Assembly: GCA_046598345.1 (NCBI GenBank)
Contig: JBKJIT010000001.1
Location: 108,251-172,250 of the forward strand
Origin: Minisyncoccia bacterium
Lineage (GTDB): Bacteria > Patescibacteriota > Minisyncoccia > Phycocordibacterales > UBA918
Reading direction: 5' to 3'
Length of the DNA stretch: 64,000 nt
Shown here: piece after piece, positions 2,696 through 55,732 of the stretch
Layout of the letters: the number at the start of each line of letters is the position of its first letter
Numbering within the stretch: the stretch's first letter is position 1
Notes under the pieces: generated by a model
Databases searched by the model: none
What the model saw: only the letters and a program-made list of their open reading frames with translations
Told to the model about the DNA's origin: nothing
Made by a program: the position numbers and the translations under genes

Positions 2696-2727
2696 ACAGG
2701 GGAGTGATTTCTGGAACGAATAACGCA

Positions 2728-2758
2728 CAGCGCACTCGAGGAGAGTGCGCTGTTTTTG
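2728..2758 (+). terminator. rho-independent terminator
   Basis: cagcgcactc gagga gagtgcgctg tttttg. Confidence 0.7.
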
Positions 2759-3087
2759 TACTGAGTAATTCTAGTTATGCAACGAAGATCGTAGCTCCAC
2801 GTACGCAATACCACTTAGATTGATGTCACCATGACAAGATCCTCAGCTATTTCTTGCGCGCGAATAGTGAAGGCAATAACAAACATGGAAAAGGCAATAA
2901 CTAAAAACCATGCGATGTAGGGAAACGGCTTGAATTCTTCGAGCTTTCTCATTGAGGTATCATACTATTTTTCATCATAAGCGATGCTGTTTCCCGGGGA
3001 TAATTAAAAAAGCATGTATTGACTAATAGAAAAAACGATGTATAGTTCTAAATAGAAATCAGTCATTCGGCTGATAGGGAGAACTAT

Positions 3088-3459
3088 ATGCTCTGGTTTA
3101 AAAGCTTGGGTCTTGGATTGTTATTCTGGTGTGTGGTAGTTGTAGTTGCAGCTGTCGGTGATTTGCTCGCGGTCATGGGGAACCCTGACATGTCTGATCG
3201 GGAAATGATGGTTCAGCTTGTCATAAACATACTCTTCGTGTGGATGGCTGCGGTAGGCTCATTCCTCCTCATCCACATCAAGAAAATCAAGCTCGGCTGG
3301 CGACCCTTTCTTGTACGCTCCGTGTTTATCTGGGTACCCATCTCGATTGGCTGGTGGGCAATGTCAAAAACAGGCGCTGTCGGCTGGTTTACACTGGGCG
3401 GCATGTTTTCGTCCGTCTTCTTTGCGTATGAAATGCTCGTACTTCGTACACGTACATAA
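3088..3459 (+). CDS. hypothetical integral membrane protein (123 aa, 4 TM)
   Basis: RBS GGGAGAACTAT then ATG. Translation is hydrophobic throughout. Terminator follows. Confidence 0.6.
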   Translation: MLWFKSLGLGLLFWCVVVVVAAVGDLLAVMGNPDMSDREMMVQLVINILFVWMAAVGSFLLIHIKKIKLGWRPFLVRSVFIWVPISIGWWAMSKTGAVGWFTLGGMFSSVFFAYEMLVLRTRT

Positions 3460-3491
3460 GGGGTCGGTGGTGTAGCTATACATATTGTTCC

Positions 3492-3525
3492 AGCGCCCGT
3501 AGTTGTATCTGCGGGCGCTTTTTTA
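3492..3525 (+). terminator. rho-independent terminator
   Basis: agcgcccg tagttgtatct gcgggcgct tttttt. Confidence 0.7.
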
Positions 3526-7065: not shown

Positions 7066-7085
7066 TGTGACTCTGAACAACTGGA

Positions 7086-7110
7086 AAGGCGGTGCATGCA
7101 CCGCCTTTTG
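7086..7110 (+). terminator. rho-independent terminator
   Basis: aaggcggtgca tgcaccgcc tttt. Confidence 0.65.
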
Positions 7111-7161
7111 TTATGTGTGGTACATTGAAAATTGGAATATTCCAAAGTCAGGAGCATTGGT

Positions 7162-7395
7162 ATGCGATCATGTTGTGAATGCAATGAACCAATTGAAGGT
7201 TGCATGGGGAGTGTGAATCCCACAGATTTCCTCGAACTCGAACAGGGTGACCGACATACATGTCGCGAACTGTGTGGGCGGTGCACACTCTTTTACCAGT
7301 CGAGGAACATGCGACCTCTTTGGACTCGTCAGCAAGTCCCTGTTTGGTCACCGGAAATCGTTAACCGCTACCCGGTCCTTGAAGCCACTTCATAG
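7162..7395 (+). CDS. small cysteine-rich protein (77 aa), putative zinc-ribbon
   Basis: MRSCCECNEPIEGCMG...HTCRELCGRCTLF has 9 Cys in CxC/CxxC spacings. RBS-like AGGAGCATTGGT then ATG. Confidence 0.4.
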   Translation: MRSCCECNEPIEGCMGSVNPTDFLELEQGDRHTCRELCGRCTLFYQSRNMRPLWTRQQVPVWSPEIVNRYPVLEATS

Positions 7396-7432
7396 TGGCT
7401 TTTTCTTTTGACTATGTTAGGTTGTATCGATT

Positions 7433-17130: not shown

Positions 17131-17155
17131 ATCTTCAACTATAGCCCAGCAATTT

Positions 17156-17204
17156 AAATCCTAAAAGTTTTAAGAAAGAAGCTTTTAGGGATTTCTGTTA
17201 TAAT
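17156..17204. promoter_or_regulatory. 13-bp inverted repeat (aaatcctaaaag / cttttagggattt) abutting a TTATAAT -10 element in a divergent intergenic region; candidate operator
   Basis: Near-perfect palindrome with a 14-nt spacer, 3 nt upstream of ttataat. Lies between the divergent genes 16117..17130(-) and 17239..(+). Confidence 0.4.
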
Positions 17205-51608: not shown

Positions 51609-53843
51609 TTGCGCAAAGAGTTACTAACTTTTAATTTCACTCGGATGAAAGATATTGCAAAAGGAATAGTGTATTTGGGAGTTTTTGCCATCCCATTTAT
51701 TCCCCTCATTATTTCCAACACAATGTTTTTTCCCTTTATTACGGGAAAAAATTTCACCTTCCGCGTCATTGTTGAAATTATTTTTGCAGCATGGATACTA
51801 CTCGCTCTCTATGAACCTCTCTATAGGCCACGTTTTTCGTGGATAGTCGCTGGGTTTACATCGCTCCTCGTCGTAATGTTTTTTGCGAATCTTTTCGGGG
51901 CAAACCCGCTCCAGAGTTTTTGGAGCAATTTCGAACGTATGGAAGGGTATGTCACCTTGGTGCATATGTTCCTCTACTTTCTTGTGGCTGGGAGTGTACT
52001 TACTACTGATAAGCTTTGGAACCGTTTTTTCAACACAACACTTTTTGCAGCAGTACTCCTCTCGCTCTATGCATTTGCGCAGCTTTCTGGGAATATTGTT
52101 ATCAATCAGGGAGGATGGCGTCTCGATGGAACTCTGGGTAATTCAGCGTATATGGCAATCTATATGCTTTTCCACAGCTTCATAGCGCTCTTTATGCTTG
52201 TACGGACGCGTACTCGAGGACTTCAATACACGTATGGGGCGCTTTTAATTCTATTCATTTTTCTTCTCATACAGACAGCGACTCGCGGTTCAATAATCGG
52301 ATTTTTCGGGGGCCTCTTTGTGACAACGCTCTACATCACGCTATTTATCAAGGATCATCCACGAGTTCGTAAGGTAGCAATATCTTCACTCGTTGCTGTG
52401 GTTGCTCTTGTTGGACTCTTTGTTGCATTTAGGGACTCAGCACTTATTCAAAGCAACCCCTACCTCGGTCGAGTCGCGAACATAACGCTGAGTGAAGGAA
52501 ATGTACGTTTTAAAGTGTGGAATATGGCGATTGAAGGATTTAAGGAACGCCCAGTTCTTGGATGGGGACAGAGTAATTTCAACTACGTTTTCAATGAGCA
52601 CTATGATCCATCAATCTACTTTGCTGAATCATGGTATGACCGGGTGCACGATATTGCATTCGATTGGCTCATTGCAGGGGGTGTCTTAGGATTCATTGCG
52701 TACTTCTCGATTCTAGCTGCAGCACTCTACTACCTTTTCTTTAGACCACTCTTTAAGAAAGACGATGAGTCAATGACTGTGGTTGAGCGGGGTGTGCTCC
52801 TCGGTCTCCTTGCGGGATATGTCTTCCATAATATTTTCGTGTTCGACAACATCGTAAGTTATGTCTATTACGGAACCATCCTCGCATTTATTCATTCACG
52901 TGTTGCGTCGGCAATACCCAAGGTGGCAGCAGCAAAATTTGACACGCGTGTACTCGAACAGATTGCTACACCTGTTGTTGGGGTCGCACTCTTGTTTGTG
53001 ATCTACTTTGTGAATGCACCGGGTATTCGAGCTGCGAGTGACATTATTGATGCATTTTCAACACAGTCTCCAGACGCAGCCTTCCAACAGTTTGACGAAG
53101 CACTCTCGCGTAATTCATTTGGAAACCAGGAAATCCGGGAACAGCTCACGAGACAGGCACAAGCACTCATCCAGGATCCTAAAGCCGATGCAGCTCTTAA
53201 GGAAAAGGTGAAAGCACGTGTGGAAGAAGAGCTCATTAAGCAGATTGAGGAAAAGCCTAATGATGCACGTGTGCATGTATTCATTAGCTCCTTCTATCGA
53301 ATGACGGGGGATATTGATAAGGCAATCGAACAACTCGAAATAGCTCGTTCTCTTTCTCCACAAAAGCAGCAAATTATTTTTGAACAGGGGCTCGCGCATC
53401 TCCAGAAGGGTGAGAACGACATAGCACTCGCATACTTTAAAGAGGCGTATGATCTTGCACCTTCTTACTCGGAAGCCGCAGTATTCTATGCAGTTGCAGG
53501 ACTTTTCGCGGGGAAGCCAGAGATTATAGACGAAGTTCTTACCACCAAAGAGCTTAGAGATAGCTTCTCAGAAAATGATCTTGCCGTGCAAGCTGCGTAC
53601 AGCACGAAGCAATTTGATGTTCTCGAAAATATATTTAAGACTCGAATAGAACGGAAACCGGAAGATCCTCAGGCACGTACCAATCTTGCGTTTATCCTGA
53701 ATGAACAGGGTAAAACAACCGAGGCGATTGAAATTCTGAACCAAGCAGCGAAAGATATTCCGTCATTTGAAGGACAGTCACAGCAGTTTATTGCGAGTCT
53801 CCTTGCGGGAAACAGTCCAACGACGAGCCCTGTAGCACCGTAG
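51609..53843 (+). CDS. O-antigen ligase-domain (Wzy_C) membrane protein fused to C-terminal TPR repeats; putative O-oligosaccharyltransferase or polymerase
   Basis: About 12 TM N-terminal half with TATRGSIIGFFGGL (Wzy_C-like loop). The C-terminal 300 aa is soluble, helical and TPR-like. Confidence 0.65.
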   Translation: MRKELLTFNFTRMKDIAKGIVYLGVFAIPFIPLIISNTMFFPFITGKNFTFRVIVEIIFAAWILLALYEPLYRPRFSWIVAGFTSLLVVMFFANLFGANPLQSFWSNFERMEGYVTLVHMFLYFLVAGSVLTTDKLWNRFFNTTLFAAVLLSLYAFAQLSGNIVINQGGWRLDGTLGNSAYMAIYMLFHSFIALFMLVRTRTRGLQYTYGALLILFIFLLIQTATRGSIIGFFGGLFVTTLYITLFIKDHPRVRKVAISSLVAVVALVGLFVAFRDSALIQSNPYLGRVANITLSEGNVRFKVWNMAIEGFKERPVLGWGQSNFNYVFNEHYDPSIYFAESWYDRVHDIAFDWLIAGGVLGFIAYFSILAAALYYLFFRPLFKKDDESMTVVERGVLLGLLAGYVFHNIFVFDNIVSYVYYGTILAFIHSRVASAIPKVAAAKFDTRVLEQIATPVVGVALLFVIYFVNAPGIRAASDIIDAFSTQSPDAAFQQFDEALSRNSFGNQEIREQLTRQAQALIQDPKADAALKEKVKARVEEELIKQIEEKPNDARVHVFISSFYRMTGDIDKAIEQLEIARSLSPQKQQIIFEQGLAHLQKGENDIALAYFKEAYDLAPSYSEAAVFYAVAGLFAGKPEIIDEVLTTKELRDSFSENDLAVQAAYSTKQFDVLENIFKTRIERKPEDPQARTNLAFILNEQGKTTEAIEILNQAAKDIPSFEGQSQQFIASLLAGNSPTTSPVAP

Positions 53844-53902
53844 TGGATTGTGCGCTTGACGCAGGAAGTCTAGCAGCTATACTTACGCATGAGTCCACGT
53901 TG

Positions 53903-54190
53903 TGGAGCTCTAAATTTGAAAGTTTAACGTAAAGATCCCCGGGGTGGGGATTTTTGCGTTTTAGGGTGTGCCTCAACGTAGAAATCCTCACCCCGGGTGG
54001 GTGAGACAGTCTGGGGGAGTGTCGCAAGACTTTGAACTCTAATTTAGTCTCCCAGACTAAATTAGTATGAAAAGTTACAGCCGCTGTATGCGGTTTTTGC
54101 GTTTTAGGGATGGTATACTACGAGGAGCTCGTCTTTCGATATGGCTAGTAGCGGCGCTCACAATATTTAAACTTTCAATTAATTTGGAGT
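53903..54190. repeat. MITE-like non-coding element: imperfect terminal inverted repeats (ggagctctaaatttgaaagtttaa ... ttaaactttcaattaatttggagtcc) enclosing internal palindromes and a 16-nt direct repeat
   Basis: Internal perfect hairpin ctaatttagtct-ccc-agactaaattag. Palindrome atccccggggtggggat. tttttgcgttttaggg appears at about 53950 and about 54097. Confidence 0.4.
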
Positions 54191-54230
54191 CCTGCCCCTA
54201 CTGGCCATATTGGCAGATGAGTTTTATTGT

Positions 54231-55319
54231 ATGCCTTCTACTGTAAGAGAAAAGGTCCCCTTGGCCCCGTACACCACGCTTGGGATTGGTGGGGTTGCAG
54301 AATATTTTGTAGACCTGGAACATATATCGTTGTTTACAGATGTTGCAGAGTGGGCACGTGAGAAGAAACTCCCTATAACAATTCTCGGGGGAGGATCGAA
54401 TGTACTTATAGCTGATGAAGGAATTCAAGGACTCGTGATACACATGAGGACTACGGGCGTCAGGGTTCTCCATGAGGATGAGGATACCGTAGTGATTGCC
54501 GCTGCTGCAGGAGAATCGTGGGATACACTAGTGAATTTCGCAGCGGAATCGGGATACTGGGGTCTAGAAAATCTCTCGGGTATTCCGGGAAGCGTCGGCG
54601 CAGCTCCCATTCAAAATATCAATGCGTATGGAATAAGTGTAGGGGACTCTGTGTCTCACGTGCAGGCAGTCAATCTACTGACCTTAGAGGAAGTGAGTTT
54701 TTCAAAAGAAGAGTGTGCGTTTCAGTATCGCGATAGTTTTTTCAAATCAGAGAAAGGACGTGAGTTTCTTATAACCACTGTGAATGTTGTATTGCAAAAA
54801 AGACGAGGCGCAGTACTCAAGTATCGGAGTTCGTCACAGAGCATCGAACGACTTCTTTCGGAAGAAGGGATAACCGACCCAACTCCTCGTGATATACGAA
54901 GGGGAATTCTCCATATGCGACGAAACATTGGCATGCTTCTTGGGATGTATCAATCCGCAGGGTCATTCTTTAAAAATGTTCTCCTAAGTCAAGAGGAGTT
55001 TACGCGGCTCGCTGAAATAGTTGCAGCGAAGTACGGAGAAAAATCTGGAATACTTTCTCCCTGGCACTGGGAAGTGGAAGGGGGGCTTTATAAAGTGTCT
55101 ACAGCGTTTCTCATGGAGTGCACTGCATACAACAAAACGGATTTTAAAGAAAAAAGCTTTAGGGGTGTGGTGGGTATTTCACCAGGTCATACACTCTCGC
55201 TCGTTAATCAGGGCAGCGCACACGCAGCAGATGTTCGTGCGTTTGCAAAAGAGATACAGGAGACTGTACATGCAACATTTAATATTCTTATTGAACCTGA
55301 AGTACTTTTTCTTCCCTAG
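54231..55319 (+). CDS. murB: UDP-N-acetylenolpyruvoylglucosamine reductase
   Basis: LAPYTTLGIGGVAEYF and ILGGGSNVLI FAD-binding motifs. C-terminal MurB domain. Confidence 0.8.
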   Translation: MPSTVREKVPLAPYTTLGIGGVAEYFVDLEHISLFTDVAEWAREKKLPITILGGGSNVLIADEGIQGLVIHMRTTGVRVLHEDEDTVVIAAAAGESWDTLVNFAAESGYWGLENLSGIPGSVGAAPIQNINAYGISVGDSVSHVQAVNLLTLEEVSFSKEECAFQYRDSFFKSEKGREFLITTVNVVLQKRRGAVLKYRSSSQSIERLLSEEGITDPTPRDIRRGILHMRRNIGMLLGMYQSAGSFFKNVLLSQEEFTRLAEIVAAKYGEKSGILSPWHWEVEGGLYKVSTAFLMECTAYNKTDFKEKSFRGVVGISPGHTLSLVNQGSAHAADVRAFAKEIQETVHATFNILIEPEVLFLP

Positions 55320-55529: not shown

Positions 55530-55622
55530 ATGGCAGCAAAAAAGAAGGCAGCTAAGAAGACAGCTAAGCGAAAGGCAGCTAAGAAGACCGCAAAGCGAAA
55601 GACAACTGCAAAGCGAAAATAA
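55530..55622 (+). CDS. 30-aa lysine/alanine-rich basic peptide (MAAKKKAAKKTAKRKAAKKTAKRKTTAKRK)
   Basis: ATG at 55530, TAA at 55620. Three tandem KAAKKTAKR-like repeats. Own terminator at 55643..55669. Preceded by a 200-bp AT-rich region. No obvious SD. Confidence 0.3.
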   Translation: MAAKKKAAKKTAKRKAAKKTAKRKTTAKRK

Positions 55623-55642
55623 TTTCGTTTACGCTAAACAAA

Positions 55643-55669
55643 AACACTCCCACAAGGGAGTGTTTTTGT
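55643..55669 (+). terminator. rho-independent terminator
   Basis: aacactccc acaa gggagtgtt tttg. Confidence 0.6.
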
Positions 55670-55732
55670 TTCTCTAGGACAGTTTTTTGGAGAGCATTTT
55701 TCATGCTATGCTGGGTACACTTTTAAATCCAT

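Follow-up and report, generated by a model that had tools for sequence, protein, structure and literature searches.

The spacer upstream of murB in a 64,000-nucleotide stretch of the genome of a Minisyncoccia bacterium (contig JBKJIT010000001.1; the whole stretch is referred to here as the window) appears to be made up of a pair of conserved RNA units with a variable stretch, X, between them. The first unit, S, is a predicted small RNA (sRNA), and the second, H, is a hairpin in the 5' leader of murB, the gene that encodes UDP-N-acetylenolpyruvoylglucosamine reductase. Comparative sequence analysis suggests that S and H represent a dedicated riboregulator pair at murB, conserved across the Paceibacteria (Parcubacteria) branch of Patescibacteria, a reading to which we assign a probability of roughly 0.75; the most likely function of such a pair is antisense-type post-transcriptional control of murB. 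A preliminary description of the spacer had proposed either a miniature inverted-repeat transposable element (MITE) or a structured non-coding RNA. The idea of structured RNA is retained here, and the single element is replaced by two conserved RNAs that seem to be separately promoted.

The predicted small RNA S and the predicted murB leader hairpin H

The spacer is located between the gene for a Wzy_C/TPR membrane protein (51609-53843, + strand) and murB. It measures 387 nt, and not the 366 previously given, when counted to the conserved murB ATG at 54231, with which begins a protein whose first residues (MP...) are kept in relatives. The closest MurB homologues, at most 56% identical, come from metagenome-assembled genomes of Paceibacteria/Parcubacteria, and two loci (L001 and L003) retain the gene order sulfurylase, Wzy-TPR, murB, secA, with spacers of 54 and 121 nt. 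The comparison set consisted of 80 Patescibacteria murB loci gathered by an alignment-based scan, and two covariance models, R1 for H and R2 for S, were searched over 84 sources. The elements on which the argument relies are the following, in coordinates of the window:

53856-53883, + strand: promoter of S, with -35 box TTGACG, 16-nt spacer and -10 box TATACT (consensus scan, 10/12 matches)
53887-53964, + strand: small RNA S, ~75 nt (R2 77.2 bits, E = 4e-17; fold of 53890-53962; 34-copy alignment)
53904-53929, + strand: part of S that pairs with H, the left "terminal inverted repeat" (TIR) of the preliminary description (RNAduplex 21 bp, one 3-nt bulge, -20.6 kcal/mol)
53926-53966, + strand: terminator of S, a 14-15 bp stem AACGUAAAGAUCCCC / GGGGAUUUUUGCGUU with loop GGGGU and a U-rich tail (fold, covariation)
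54111-54119, + strand: probable promoter of H, an extended -10 box TGgTATACT (read from the sequence)
54124-54232, + strand: H, the murB 5' leader hairpin, ~100 nt (R1 108.5 bits on the + strand versus 31.3 on the - strand)
54165-54192, + strand: target site of S in H, the right "TIR", comprising the apical loop and the 3' strand of the inner stem (RNAduplex, repeat search)
54231-55319, + strand: murB, the gene led by H (Pfam FAD_binding_4 and MurB_C)

Model R1 recognizes H in 41 of the 84 sources, always on the murB strand, and in approximately 27 of these 41 loci the hairpin ends 0-25 nt before the murB start codon. H has the shape of an unbranched rod of ~45 bp in total, in which a basal stem, the stem AUGGCUAGUAG/CUACUGGCCAU and a conserved internal loop are followed by an upper part formed by the inner stem CUC-A-CAA/UUG-GAG and the apical loop. 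Both sides have changed in 22 of the 24 consensus pairs of the 41-sequence alignment, and paired cells amount to 86.8%, versus 40-45% in slid controls, with none of 500 shuffles reaching the observed values. The same slid controls yield 42-69 double-change cells and covariation scores of 0.11-0.14, versus 205 and 0.54 for the actual alignment. The apex is strongly conserved (GCACUCACA(U), loop, UUUUGGAGCU, CGCAC), and the invariant internal loop and apex (GCACUCACA ... UUUGGAGCU-CGCAC) could serve as a ligand or protein site; pairing with S accounts for part of this conservation. No multi-stem junction with conserved unpaired nucleotides, of the type found in aptamers, was seen. A TATACT/TATAAT box occurs a few nucleotides ahead of the hairpin base in most of the 41 loci and probably acts as a promoter; no clear -35 box accompanies the one at 54111-54119. 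A small open reading frame (ORF) within H (MASSGAHNI...) was also considered and rejected, being interrupted in the window and frame-shifted among homologues, with an unconserved ATG.

S is composed of a 5' box, a 5' hairpin (53891-53910), a single-stranded linker with the seed, and an intrinsic terminator, its predicted start being at ~53889-53891. The 5' box generally reads (A/G)UGUGAGUGC and is shortened to (A)UGAGU in the window. All six seed sequences retain the 5' hairpin, although its sequence varies. Nearly every one of the 34 aligned copies of S, those encoded on the opposite strand included, has a promoter of the form TTGAC/TTGCA, ~17 nt, (TGC)TATACT at a constant distance upstream; one truncated copy lacks it. 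The terminator stem spans 12-15 bp across homologues, takes in the A-tract/U-tract and is followed by a U tail, and 8 of its 12 pairs display changes on both sides among the 34 homologues. These features suggest that S is an independent transcription unit with its own promoter and intrinsic terminator. It is of note that one locus, L129, harbors two copies of S (1857-1940 and 3048-3119), of which the copy nearer to H is devoid of the 5' GUGAGUGC box and of the promoter.

Several of the symmetries that had drawn attention to the spacer fall within the S terminator region, which encloses a GC palindrome and the first copy of a repeated 16-mer (53951-53966). The palindrome, ATCCCCGGGGTGGGGAT at 53935-53951, was described correctly, as was its related copy CACCCCGGGTGGG at ~53989-54002, and represents the top of the 14-15 bp stem AACGTAAAGATCCCC / GGGGATTTTTGCGTT. 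The window indeed contains two copies of the 16-mer TTTTTGCGTTTTAGGG and no more, one at 53951 and the other at 54094, with a spacing of 143 nt in place of the ~147 reported. In viral contigs (L006-L086) it was found 81 times as an exact match, in unrelated sequences, and in ~70% of the distinct viral sequence families that contain it, it immediately follows a GC-rich hairpin. Since most of these distinct occurrences directly follow a GC hairpin, the 16-mer can be regarded as a generic T-rich terminator tail, and its use as a family marker was ruled out, as it recurs in this role in unrelated phages.

The RNA fold of the spacer reaches -160.6 kcal/mol on the + strand (z = -9.8), the highest structure level of approximately 19 spacer stretches tested in the window, in agreement with the earlier impression that this spacer is unusually structured; on the - strand the values are -117.5 kcal/mol and z = -5.5. 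A hand count of the main helices in the window gives 7 G-U pairs versus 1 A-C mismatch on the + strand, and this G-U excess, together with the asymmetry in folding, indicates an RNA that is read in the same direction as the flanking genes. Fold energy and the compensatory changes in the H and S terminator stems thus both favor the structured RNA envisaged initially. Comparison of the spacer with the 80 murB loci by blastn detected homologues directly upstream of murB, namely in L093 (84% over 113 nt and 78% over 128 nt), L089 (90% over 73 nt), L105 (75% over 96 nt) and, more weakly, L114. Additional searches for relatives again returned only L093 and contigs of the L089 type. No Rfam 15 family reaches its gathering score in the region; at this level the window yields tRNA-Ile only, and 18 homologous loci yield a single tRNA. 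At E <= 10, the best match to the region is that of S to ohsC_RNA, with 23.4 bits versus a gathering score of 50.

Complementarity between S and H

The inverted repeat on which the transposable element had been based is real, with a perfect 12/12 core (TTGAAAGTTTAA at 53916-53927 versus TTAAACTTTCAA at 54167-54178). As RNA it corresponds to 21 bp with one 3-nt bulge, and hand alignment extends it to ~23 bp (53904-53929 / 54165-54192); neither the 12-mer pair nor the 16-mer pair has any further occurrence in the 64-kb window. The arms, nevertheless, are not terminal: they are internal parts of two separate conserved units, namely the seed of S, whose perfect 12-nt core is UUGAAAGUUUAA at 53916-53927, and the apical loop of H, whose target core is UUAAACUUUCAA at 54167-54178. 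Beyond the loop, the duplex takes in the 3' strand of the H inner stem (UUUGGAG) and, on the other partner, the 3' strand of the S 5' hairpin, so that the full S-H duplex comprises 20-30 imperfect bp, previously seen as a ~25-bp repeat.

The sequences of seed and loop differ among genomes, and at least 10 distinct complementary variants exist among the 32 genomes that carry both units. The variants include:

Window clade: S seed GAAAGUCUA, H loop UAGACUUUC
Window itself: S seed GAAAGUUUAA, H loop UUAAACUUUC
Most genomes: S seed AAUGUCU, H loop AGACAUU
L152: S seed AAUGACU, H loop AGUCAUU
L135 and L157: S seed GAAAAACU, H loop AGUUUUUC
L164 and L159: S seed AUGUUCUA, H loop UAGAACAU
L147: S seed AAGAUUUA, H loop UAAAUCUU
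L128: S seed AAAAAUCUA, H loop UAGAUUUUU
L162: S seed GUUCAA, H loop UUGAAC

Cognate S-H duplexes in these 32 genomes have a mean energy of -15.6 kcal/mol versus -9.7 for non-cognate combinations; the cognate mean was not attained in any of 20000 permutations. In L168, L129 and L166, complementarity is kept solely via G-U pairs, which argues for a relationship at the level of RNA rather than DNA. Furthermore, in four genomes (L089, L145, L124 and L161) S is located on the opposite strand, divergent from H, with its promoter intact and its complementarity kept; this arrangement excludes transposon ends, DNA cruciforms and a long-range helix within a single transcript as general explanations. 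These observations show that the complementarity between S and H has been maintained by compensatory change, and the free co-drift of seed and loop indicates that H is the only important target of S. RNAcofold, which is unable to model contacts between a loop and a strand, was uninformative for this pair.

A second region of potential contact involves the S 5' box, GUGAGUGC, which is complementary to GCACUCAC in H. Both are mostly invariant and can form 5-12 contiguous pairs, typically 8-10, and their flanks covary (GCC/GGC, GCAG/CUGC, GCAA/UUGC, GUAC/GUAC in L152, and AAGUG/CACUU in L132); in the permutation test of this site, 15 of 20000 permutations attained the observed level. Compared with a plain antisense RNA, the two sites come in permuted order; their helices may form one after the other or as alternatives, or may mark a protein site.

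Known RNAs were also considered as identities for these units. The resemblance of the window-clade seed GAAAGUC to the conserved box of RNase P had suggested a P4-like pairing, an idea that was dropped: such a pairing is at odds with the general seed AAUGUCU, with the separate promoters and orientations of the two units and with the lack of an Rfam match. Signal recognition particle RNA (SRP), 6S RNA, tmRNA and T-box elements were ruled out by Rfam and ARAGORN.

Distribution, insert X and competing explanations

S and H occur together. Confident matches to S (E < 0.001) number 21, all in sources that carry H, and none is found in the 43 sources without H (Fisher p = 8e-9); S and H share a strand in 30 of 34 cases, with S a short way upstream, and in the other 4 S is on the opposite strand. 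The similarity of S and H to those of the window follows the relatedness of the flanking genes, the order of genomes by SecA and Wzy-TPR identity being the same as that by S/H similarity:

L093: SecA 82% identical to the window, Wzy-TPR 74%
L089: SecA 82%, Wzy-TPR 68%
L105: SecA 77%, Wzy-TPR 57%
More distant genomes: SecA 63-68%, Wzy-TPR 38-55%

This pattern fits vertical inheritance of the pair with losses (for instance in the L001/L003/L090-L092 group), and not mobility. Horizontal transfer of a cassette, to which the high nucleotide identity beside the low MurB identity could have pointed, was discarded because the SecA/Wzy-TPR ranking matches S/H similarity; the same agreement indicates that MurB identity is a poor yardstick.

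The two units are separated by merely 12-56 nt in most genomes, which identifies X as a clade-specific insert. It contains the following elements:

53963-54109, + strand: X as a whole, composed of duplicates derived from S plus a second terminator
53975-53997, + strand: arm A2, which pairs back on the 3' strand of the S terminator in a 23-bp hairpin (53938-53997)
54005-54023, + strand: small hairpin, followed by CGCAAGAC
54028-54076, + strand: long hairpin, which contains the perfect 12-bp stem at 54039-54065
54079-54095, + strand: second terminator, T2, with copy 2 of the 16-mer (54094-54109)

The perfect 12-bp hairpin CTAATTTAGTCT-CCC-AGACTAAATTAG at 54039-54065 was already part of the preliminary description and stands as given. 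The first ~80 nt of X (the arm, the small hairpin and CGCAAGAC) are conserved in L093 and L105, and the consensus hairpin of these two loci and the window has 27 predicted pairs, the hairpin of the window itself being one of 23 bp. Together, the arm and the GC hairpin that follows it repeat the S terminator in tandem and in diverged form (direct repeats D5 and D6). By hand alignment, GAACTCTAATTT...TGAAAAGTTAC matches the S linker and seed as a degenerate copy, and copy 2 of the 16-mer on T2 corresponds to the 3' strand and tail of the S terminator. The 3' part of X (12-bp hairpin and T2) aligns with a longer module in L093, with a deletion in the window. This makeup explains what remained of the features first described (the hairpin of 12 bp and the second copies of the GC palindrome and of the 16-mer) as products of local duplication, and X is probably part of read-through transcripts.

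A fuller copy of the same module is found elsewhere in the window, after tRNA-Ile (1990-2105, + strand), and is homologous to L093 3190-3300, between S and H; it consists of three hairpins, the 12-bp stem CUAAAUUAGUUC/GAACUAAUUUAG, then GGAGGUUGCCAG...GCGACAACCU, then another hairpin. The 12-bp hairpin and T2 of the window (54039-54109) look like a truncated copy of this module. A 36-nt inverted repeat with 89% identity (1780-1813 / 2169-2204) brackets tRNA-Ile and the three hairpins, and could act as a processing stem. In L105, an exact 47-nt direct repeat of the S terminator 3' strand and its pairing arm (2308-2354 and 2455-2501) has copies 147 nt apart, a spacing that parallels the 143 nt of the window 16-mers. 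In L144, the segment between H and murB (2705-3500) holds an ORF with the motif HFHLIV that may be transposase-like, flanked by near-identical GCGCAAGGACCGTCCTT(G/A)CGCAA palindromes.

One competing explanation is that S, X and H together make up a single long murB leader that acts in cis in the manner of an attenuator or riboswitch, with the S terminator as the attenuation point and the complementarity as a long-range intramolecular helix. It takes support from the 30 of 34 cases in which S precedes H on a shared strand, frequently by only 12-56 nt, and from the strong terminator directly ahead of the regulated gene; the entire spacer, folded as 389 nt, folds very well as one RNA, and in the window, L093 and L105 an alternative hairpin of 23-28 bp competes with the S terminator. 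The alternative arm is nevertheless downstream of the terminator, and cannot prevent termination co-transcriptionally, the long-range helix has a probability of 0 in the single-RNA minimum-energy fold, and a conserved -10 box intervenes between S and H. Given also that four genomes encode S, promoter included, on the opposite strand and yet keep the complementarity, and that no aptamer-like multi-stem junction with conserved unpaired nucleotides was seen, we consider a single leader unlikely. Binding to DNA of a transcription factor that controls murB, the RNA structures being incidental, would account for two nearly invariant 8-bp boxes, GTGAGTGC where S begins and GCACTCAC within H; the former lies at +1 to +10 relative to the S promoter, where operators are typically found. 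It would leave the variable seed/loop complementarity without explanation, and it is difficult to reconcile with the strong covariation of the H and S stems as RNA, with flanks of the boxes that covary as base pairs, G-U included, and with the strong strand asymmetry of model scores and fold energies; we thus regard it as very unlikely.

Insertion of a MITE or another small mobile element upstream of murB was the original proposal, and it takes support from the imperfect ~25-bp inverted repeats ~240 bp apart, from the internal repetition, from the patchy distribution within the window clade, and from the fact that, without 53903-54192, the spacer would be 97 nt long, near the 54 and 121 nt of L001 and L003. 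The putative ends, however, show no target-site duplication, the flanks (...CACGTTG/TGGAGCTC and GGAGTCC/TGCCCC) having no duplicated bases; the element is present as one copy in 64 kb, and it occupies the same site by murB in 41 genomes, with a similarity that tracks SecA and Wzy-TPR. The TIR pair had no related match in metagenome or viral contigs: in the former, the pattern produced only two unrelated matches (an AT-rich chance match in L087 and a palindromic one in L088), and in the latter no match was found to the TIR pair, to the seed and tail, or to the H core patterns. Moreover, the arms are direct repeats in L089, L145, L124 and L161, and the "TIR" sequences differ among genomes yet stay mutually complementary, partly by G-U, all of which makes a mobile element highly improbable. 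Lastly, H could be protein-coding, either for a small protein (in L089 and L093, ATGGCTAGTAGC... = MASSGAHNIRLS...) or for a type I toxin whose antitoxin RNA would be S. L089 and L093 have an open ATG-initiated frame of 31-37 codons, S has its weak ohsC_RNA match of 23.4 bits, and the layout, in which an sRNA adjoins a structured 5' region, resembles those of tisB/istR-1 and shoB/ohsC. That score, however, is far under the gathering score of 50, the window frame stops after 9 codons, and frames are shifted by a 1-nt indel between the window and L089 and by a 2-nt difference in L114. The ATG is replaced by ACGG, GTGG, ACAG or AAGA at the same position, the conservation pattern is that of paired columns, and the local ORFs have no match in Pfam; we give this possibility next to no credence.

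A number of points weigh against a dedicated S/H pair as well. The S and H transcripts, with their 5' and 3' ends, are predictions. Approximately 14 of the 41 H hairpins lie more than 25 nt (46-833 nt) from the murB start, L105 and L144 carry another gene between H and murB, 8 H loci have no detectable S within the flanks examined, and both units are missing from about half of the Paceibacteria loci, including most window-clade genomes, which indicates that murB does not need S or H. The apex of H, where S would bind, is ~25 bp away from the start codon, so that it is not evident how S would affect ribosome access directly; and in the 30 of 34 cases where S precedes H on a shared strand, it could act in cis in read-through transcripts. 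A crude estimate of the opening energy is unfavorable, owing to the over-extension of the duplex into stable stems by RNAduplex. Finally, geometric reasoning, in place of computation, indicates that the two sites of S-H complementarity, given their permuted order, cannot be fully paired at once.

Some further observations concern other parts of the window or of the contigs searched. The motif ttttaggga at ~17184, which had been linked to the spacer, sits in an unrelated short inverted repeat without any model match; this "operator-like" repeat (ATCCTAAAAG-N16-CTTTTAGGGAT, 17150-17195) lies between divergent genes and is unrelated to S or H. The long spacer between murB and secA contains a 30-codon ORF (55530-55622, + strand) for the Lys/Ala-rich peptide MAAKKKAAKKTAKRKAAKKTAKRKTTAKRK, followed by a hairpin with a T tail (a terminator) at ~55640-55670, and relatives have ORFs of 31-48 aa in the same place (L003 5330-5476, L004 5336-5437, L172 2817-2912, L173 2850-2957). 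Another structured spacer (7066-7432) holds what by eye reads as a Cys-rich small ORF of ~80 codons (7163-7400, + strand), between two terminator-like hairpins. In L088, positions 2420-2870 form, as far as read, a near-perfect palindrome of ~450 bp centered at ~2645, which contains the 12-mer pair by symmetry and is probably an assembly artefact.

Proposed mode of action, related systems and implications

If S and H are indeed regulator and target, S (~75 nt) would be made from its own sigma-70-type promoter and ended by its intrinsic terminator, and the murB mRNA leader would be transcribed from the -10 box directly ahead of H, folding into the rod-like hairpin of ~100 nt. With the base of H 0-25 nt from the murB start, ribosomes would have to land at the foot of a very stable helix or within it, an arrangement expected to be inhibitory. 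Pairing would nucleate between the linker and seed of S and the apical loop of H, through 7-12 perfectly complementary nucleotides, and would spread along the 3' strand of the H inner stem (UUUGGAG...), melting the S 5' hairpin, to generate an imperfect antisense duplex of 20-30 bp. The invariant second contact may clamp or remodel this complex. Control of murB would then proceed via an altered leader structure and/or cleavage by a double-strand-specific RNase, with a change in mRNA stability or translation. The direction of this control is not deducible from the sequence, and we lean only slightly, at little beyond even odds, towards repression. In a more ambitious and rather doubtful version of this scheme, S and H would be more than a simple antisense pair: the variable, co-evolving seed/loop contact and the invariant 5'-box contact, in permuted order, would constitute a two-site S-H switch, whose junction is recognized by a conserved protein or RNase and which serves as the principal control point for peptidoglycan precursors in much of Patescibacteria.

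Among known systems, the closest in layout are IstR-1/tisB, OhsC/shoB and OrzO/zorO of E. coli, in which sRNAs encoded next to a single target pair with its structured 5' untranslated region (UTR). Like IstR-1, OhsC and OrzO, S is short and terminated, has its own promoter, and is encoded beside a non-overlapping target in tandem or divergent orientation; as in those pairs, complementarity to the leader is limited (~10-25 nt) and the partners are mutually dedicated. The S/H pair differs from them in that its target is a housekeeping cell wall gene and not a toxin, and in that no small ORF is conserved; S is, in addition, unrelated in sequence to OhsC (Rfam score 23 versus gathering score 50), and its hosts are Patescibacteria. 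The proposed mode of contact recalls CopA/CopT of plasmid R1, RNA I/RNA II of ColE1 and Sok/hok, where recognition of a hairpin loop is followed by extension of the duplex. S, like CopA-type regulators, is small and combines a hairpin with a terminator, and the S/H pair would share with CopA/CopT a first contact at the exposed loop of a leader hairpin, a spreading duplex and a possible RNase III substrate. CopA-type RNAs, however, are cis-encoded and fully complementary, whereas S is encoded at a separate site and is partly complementary; its seed lies in a single-stranded linker and not in a loop, so that no loop-loop kiss takes place, and the S/H pair is chromosomal and would control murB, in contrast to the replication or toxin functions controlled by the CopA/CopT group.

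The long hairpin at the translation start, part of which pairs with a trans-encoded sRNA, is a feature that H shares with the rpoS leader. There, DsrA, RprA and ArcZ free the ribosome site by pairing with the basal 5' strand that covers it; unlike these, S would pair with the apex of H, ~25 bp away. DsrA, RprA and ArcZ are also Hfq-dependent and have many targets and conserved seeds, whereas the seed of S drifts with its one target. As for Correia/NEMIS, ERIC, RUP and BOX, which are MITEs or intergenic palindromic repeats of bacteria, the spacer resembles Correia/ERIC-type repeats in being small, non-coding, rich in inverted repeats, intergenic, and capable of folding well if transcribed. It differs from them in being single-copy, in lacking a target-site duplication, in its fixed position upstream of murB in 41 genomes, and in that its arms are not always inverted and co-evolve instead of representing conserved ends. 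By kind, S/H would be a base-pairing riboregulator that lies outside every Rfam 15 family; what is unusual for this class is the combination of a dedicated, co-evolving pair, two permuted sites and a Candidate Phyla Radiation host. Full-text literature searches found no description of the S/H pair, nor of any conserved base-pairing sRNA in Patescibacteria.

The two covariance models could be employed for the annotation of Patescibacteria genomes, and this case illustrates that symmetric, "MITE-like" intergenic DNA can be an sRNA/target pair. S and its target have been defined from sequence alone, across dozens of genomes and with many independent compensatory changes in trans, and as a natural pair of one regulator and one target with a drifting seed they should be useful for the study of RNA-RNA co-evolution. 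Patescibacteria, or Candidate Phyla Radiation, comprise a very large and almost wholly uncultured share of bacterial diversity, with tiny genomes, and to our knowledge their gene regulation is almost unstudied. The two-site switch, if true, would represent a riboregulatory mechanism for which no counterpart has been described, and Patescibacteria would have in it their first conserved RNA regulator that acts in trans. MurB catalyzes a committed step of cell wall precursor synthesis, which is plausibly critical for host-attached organisms that need to tune their growth.

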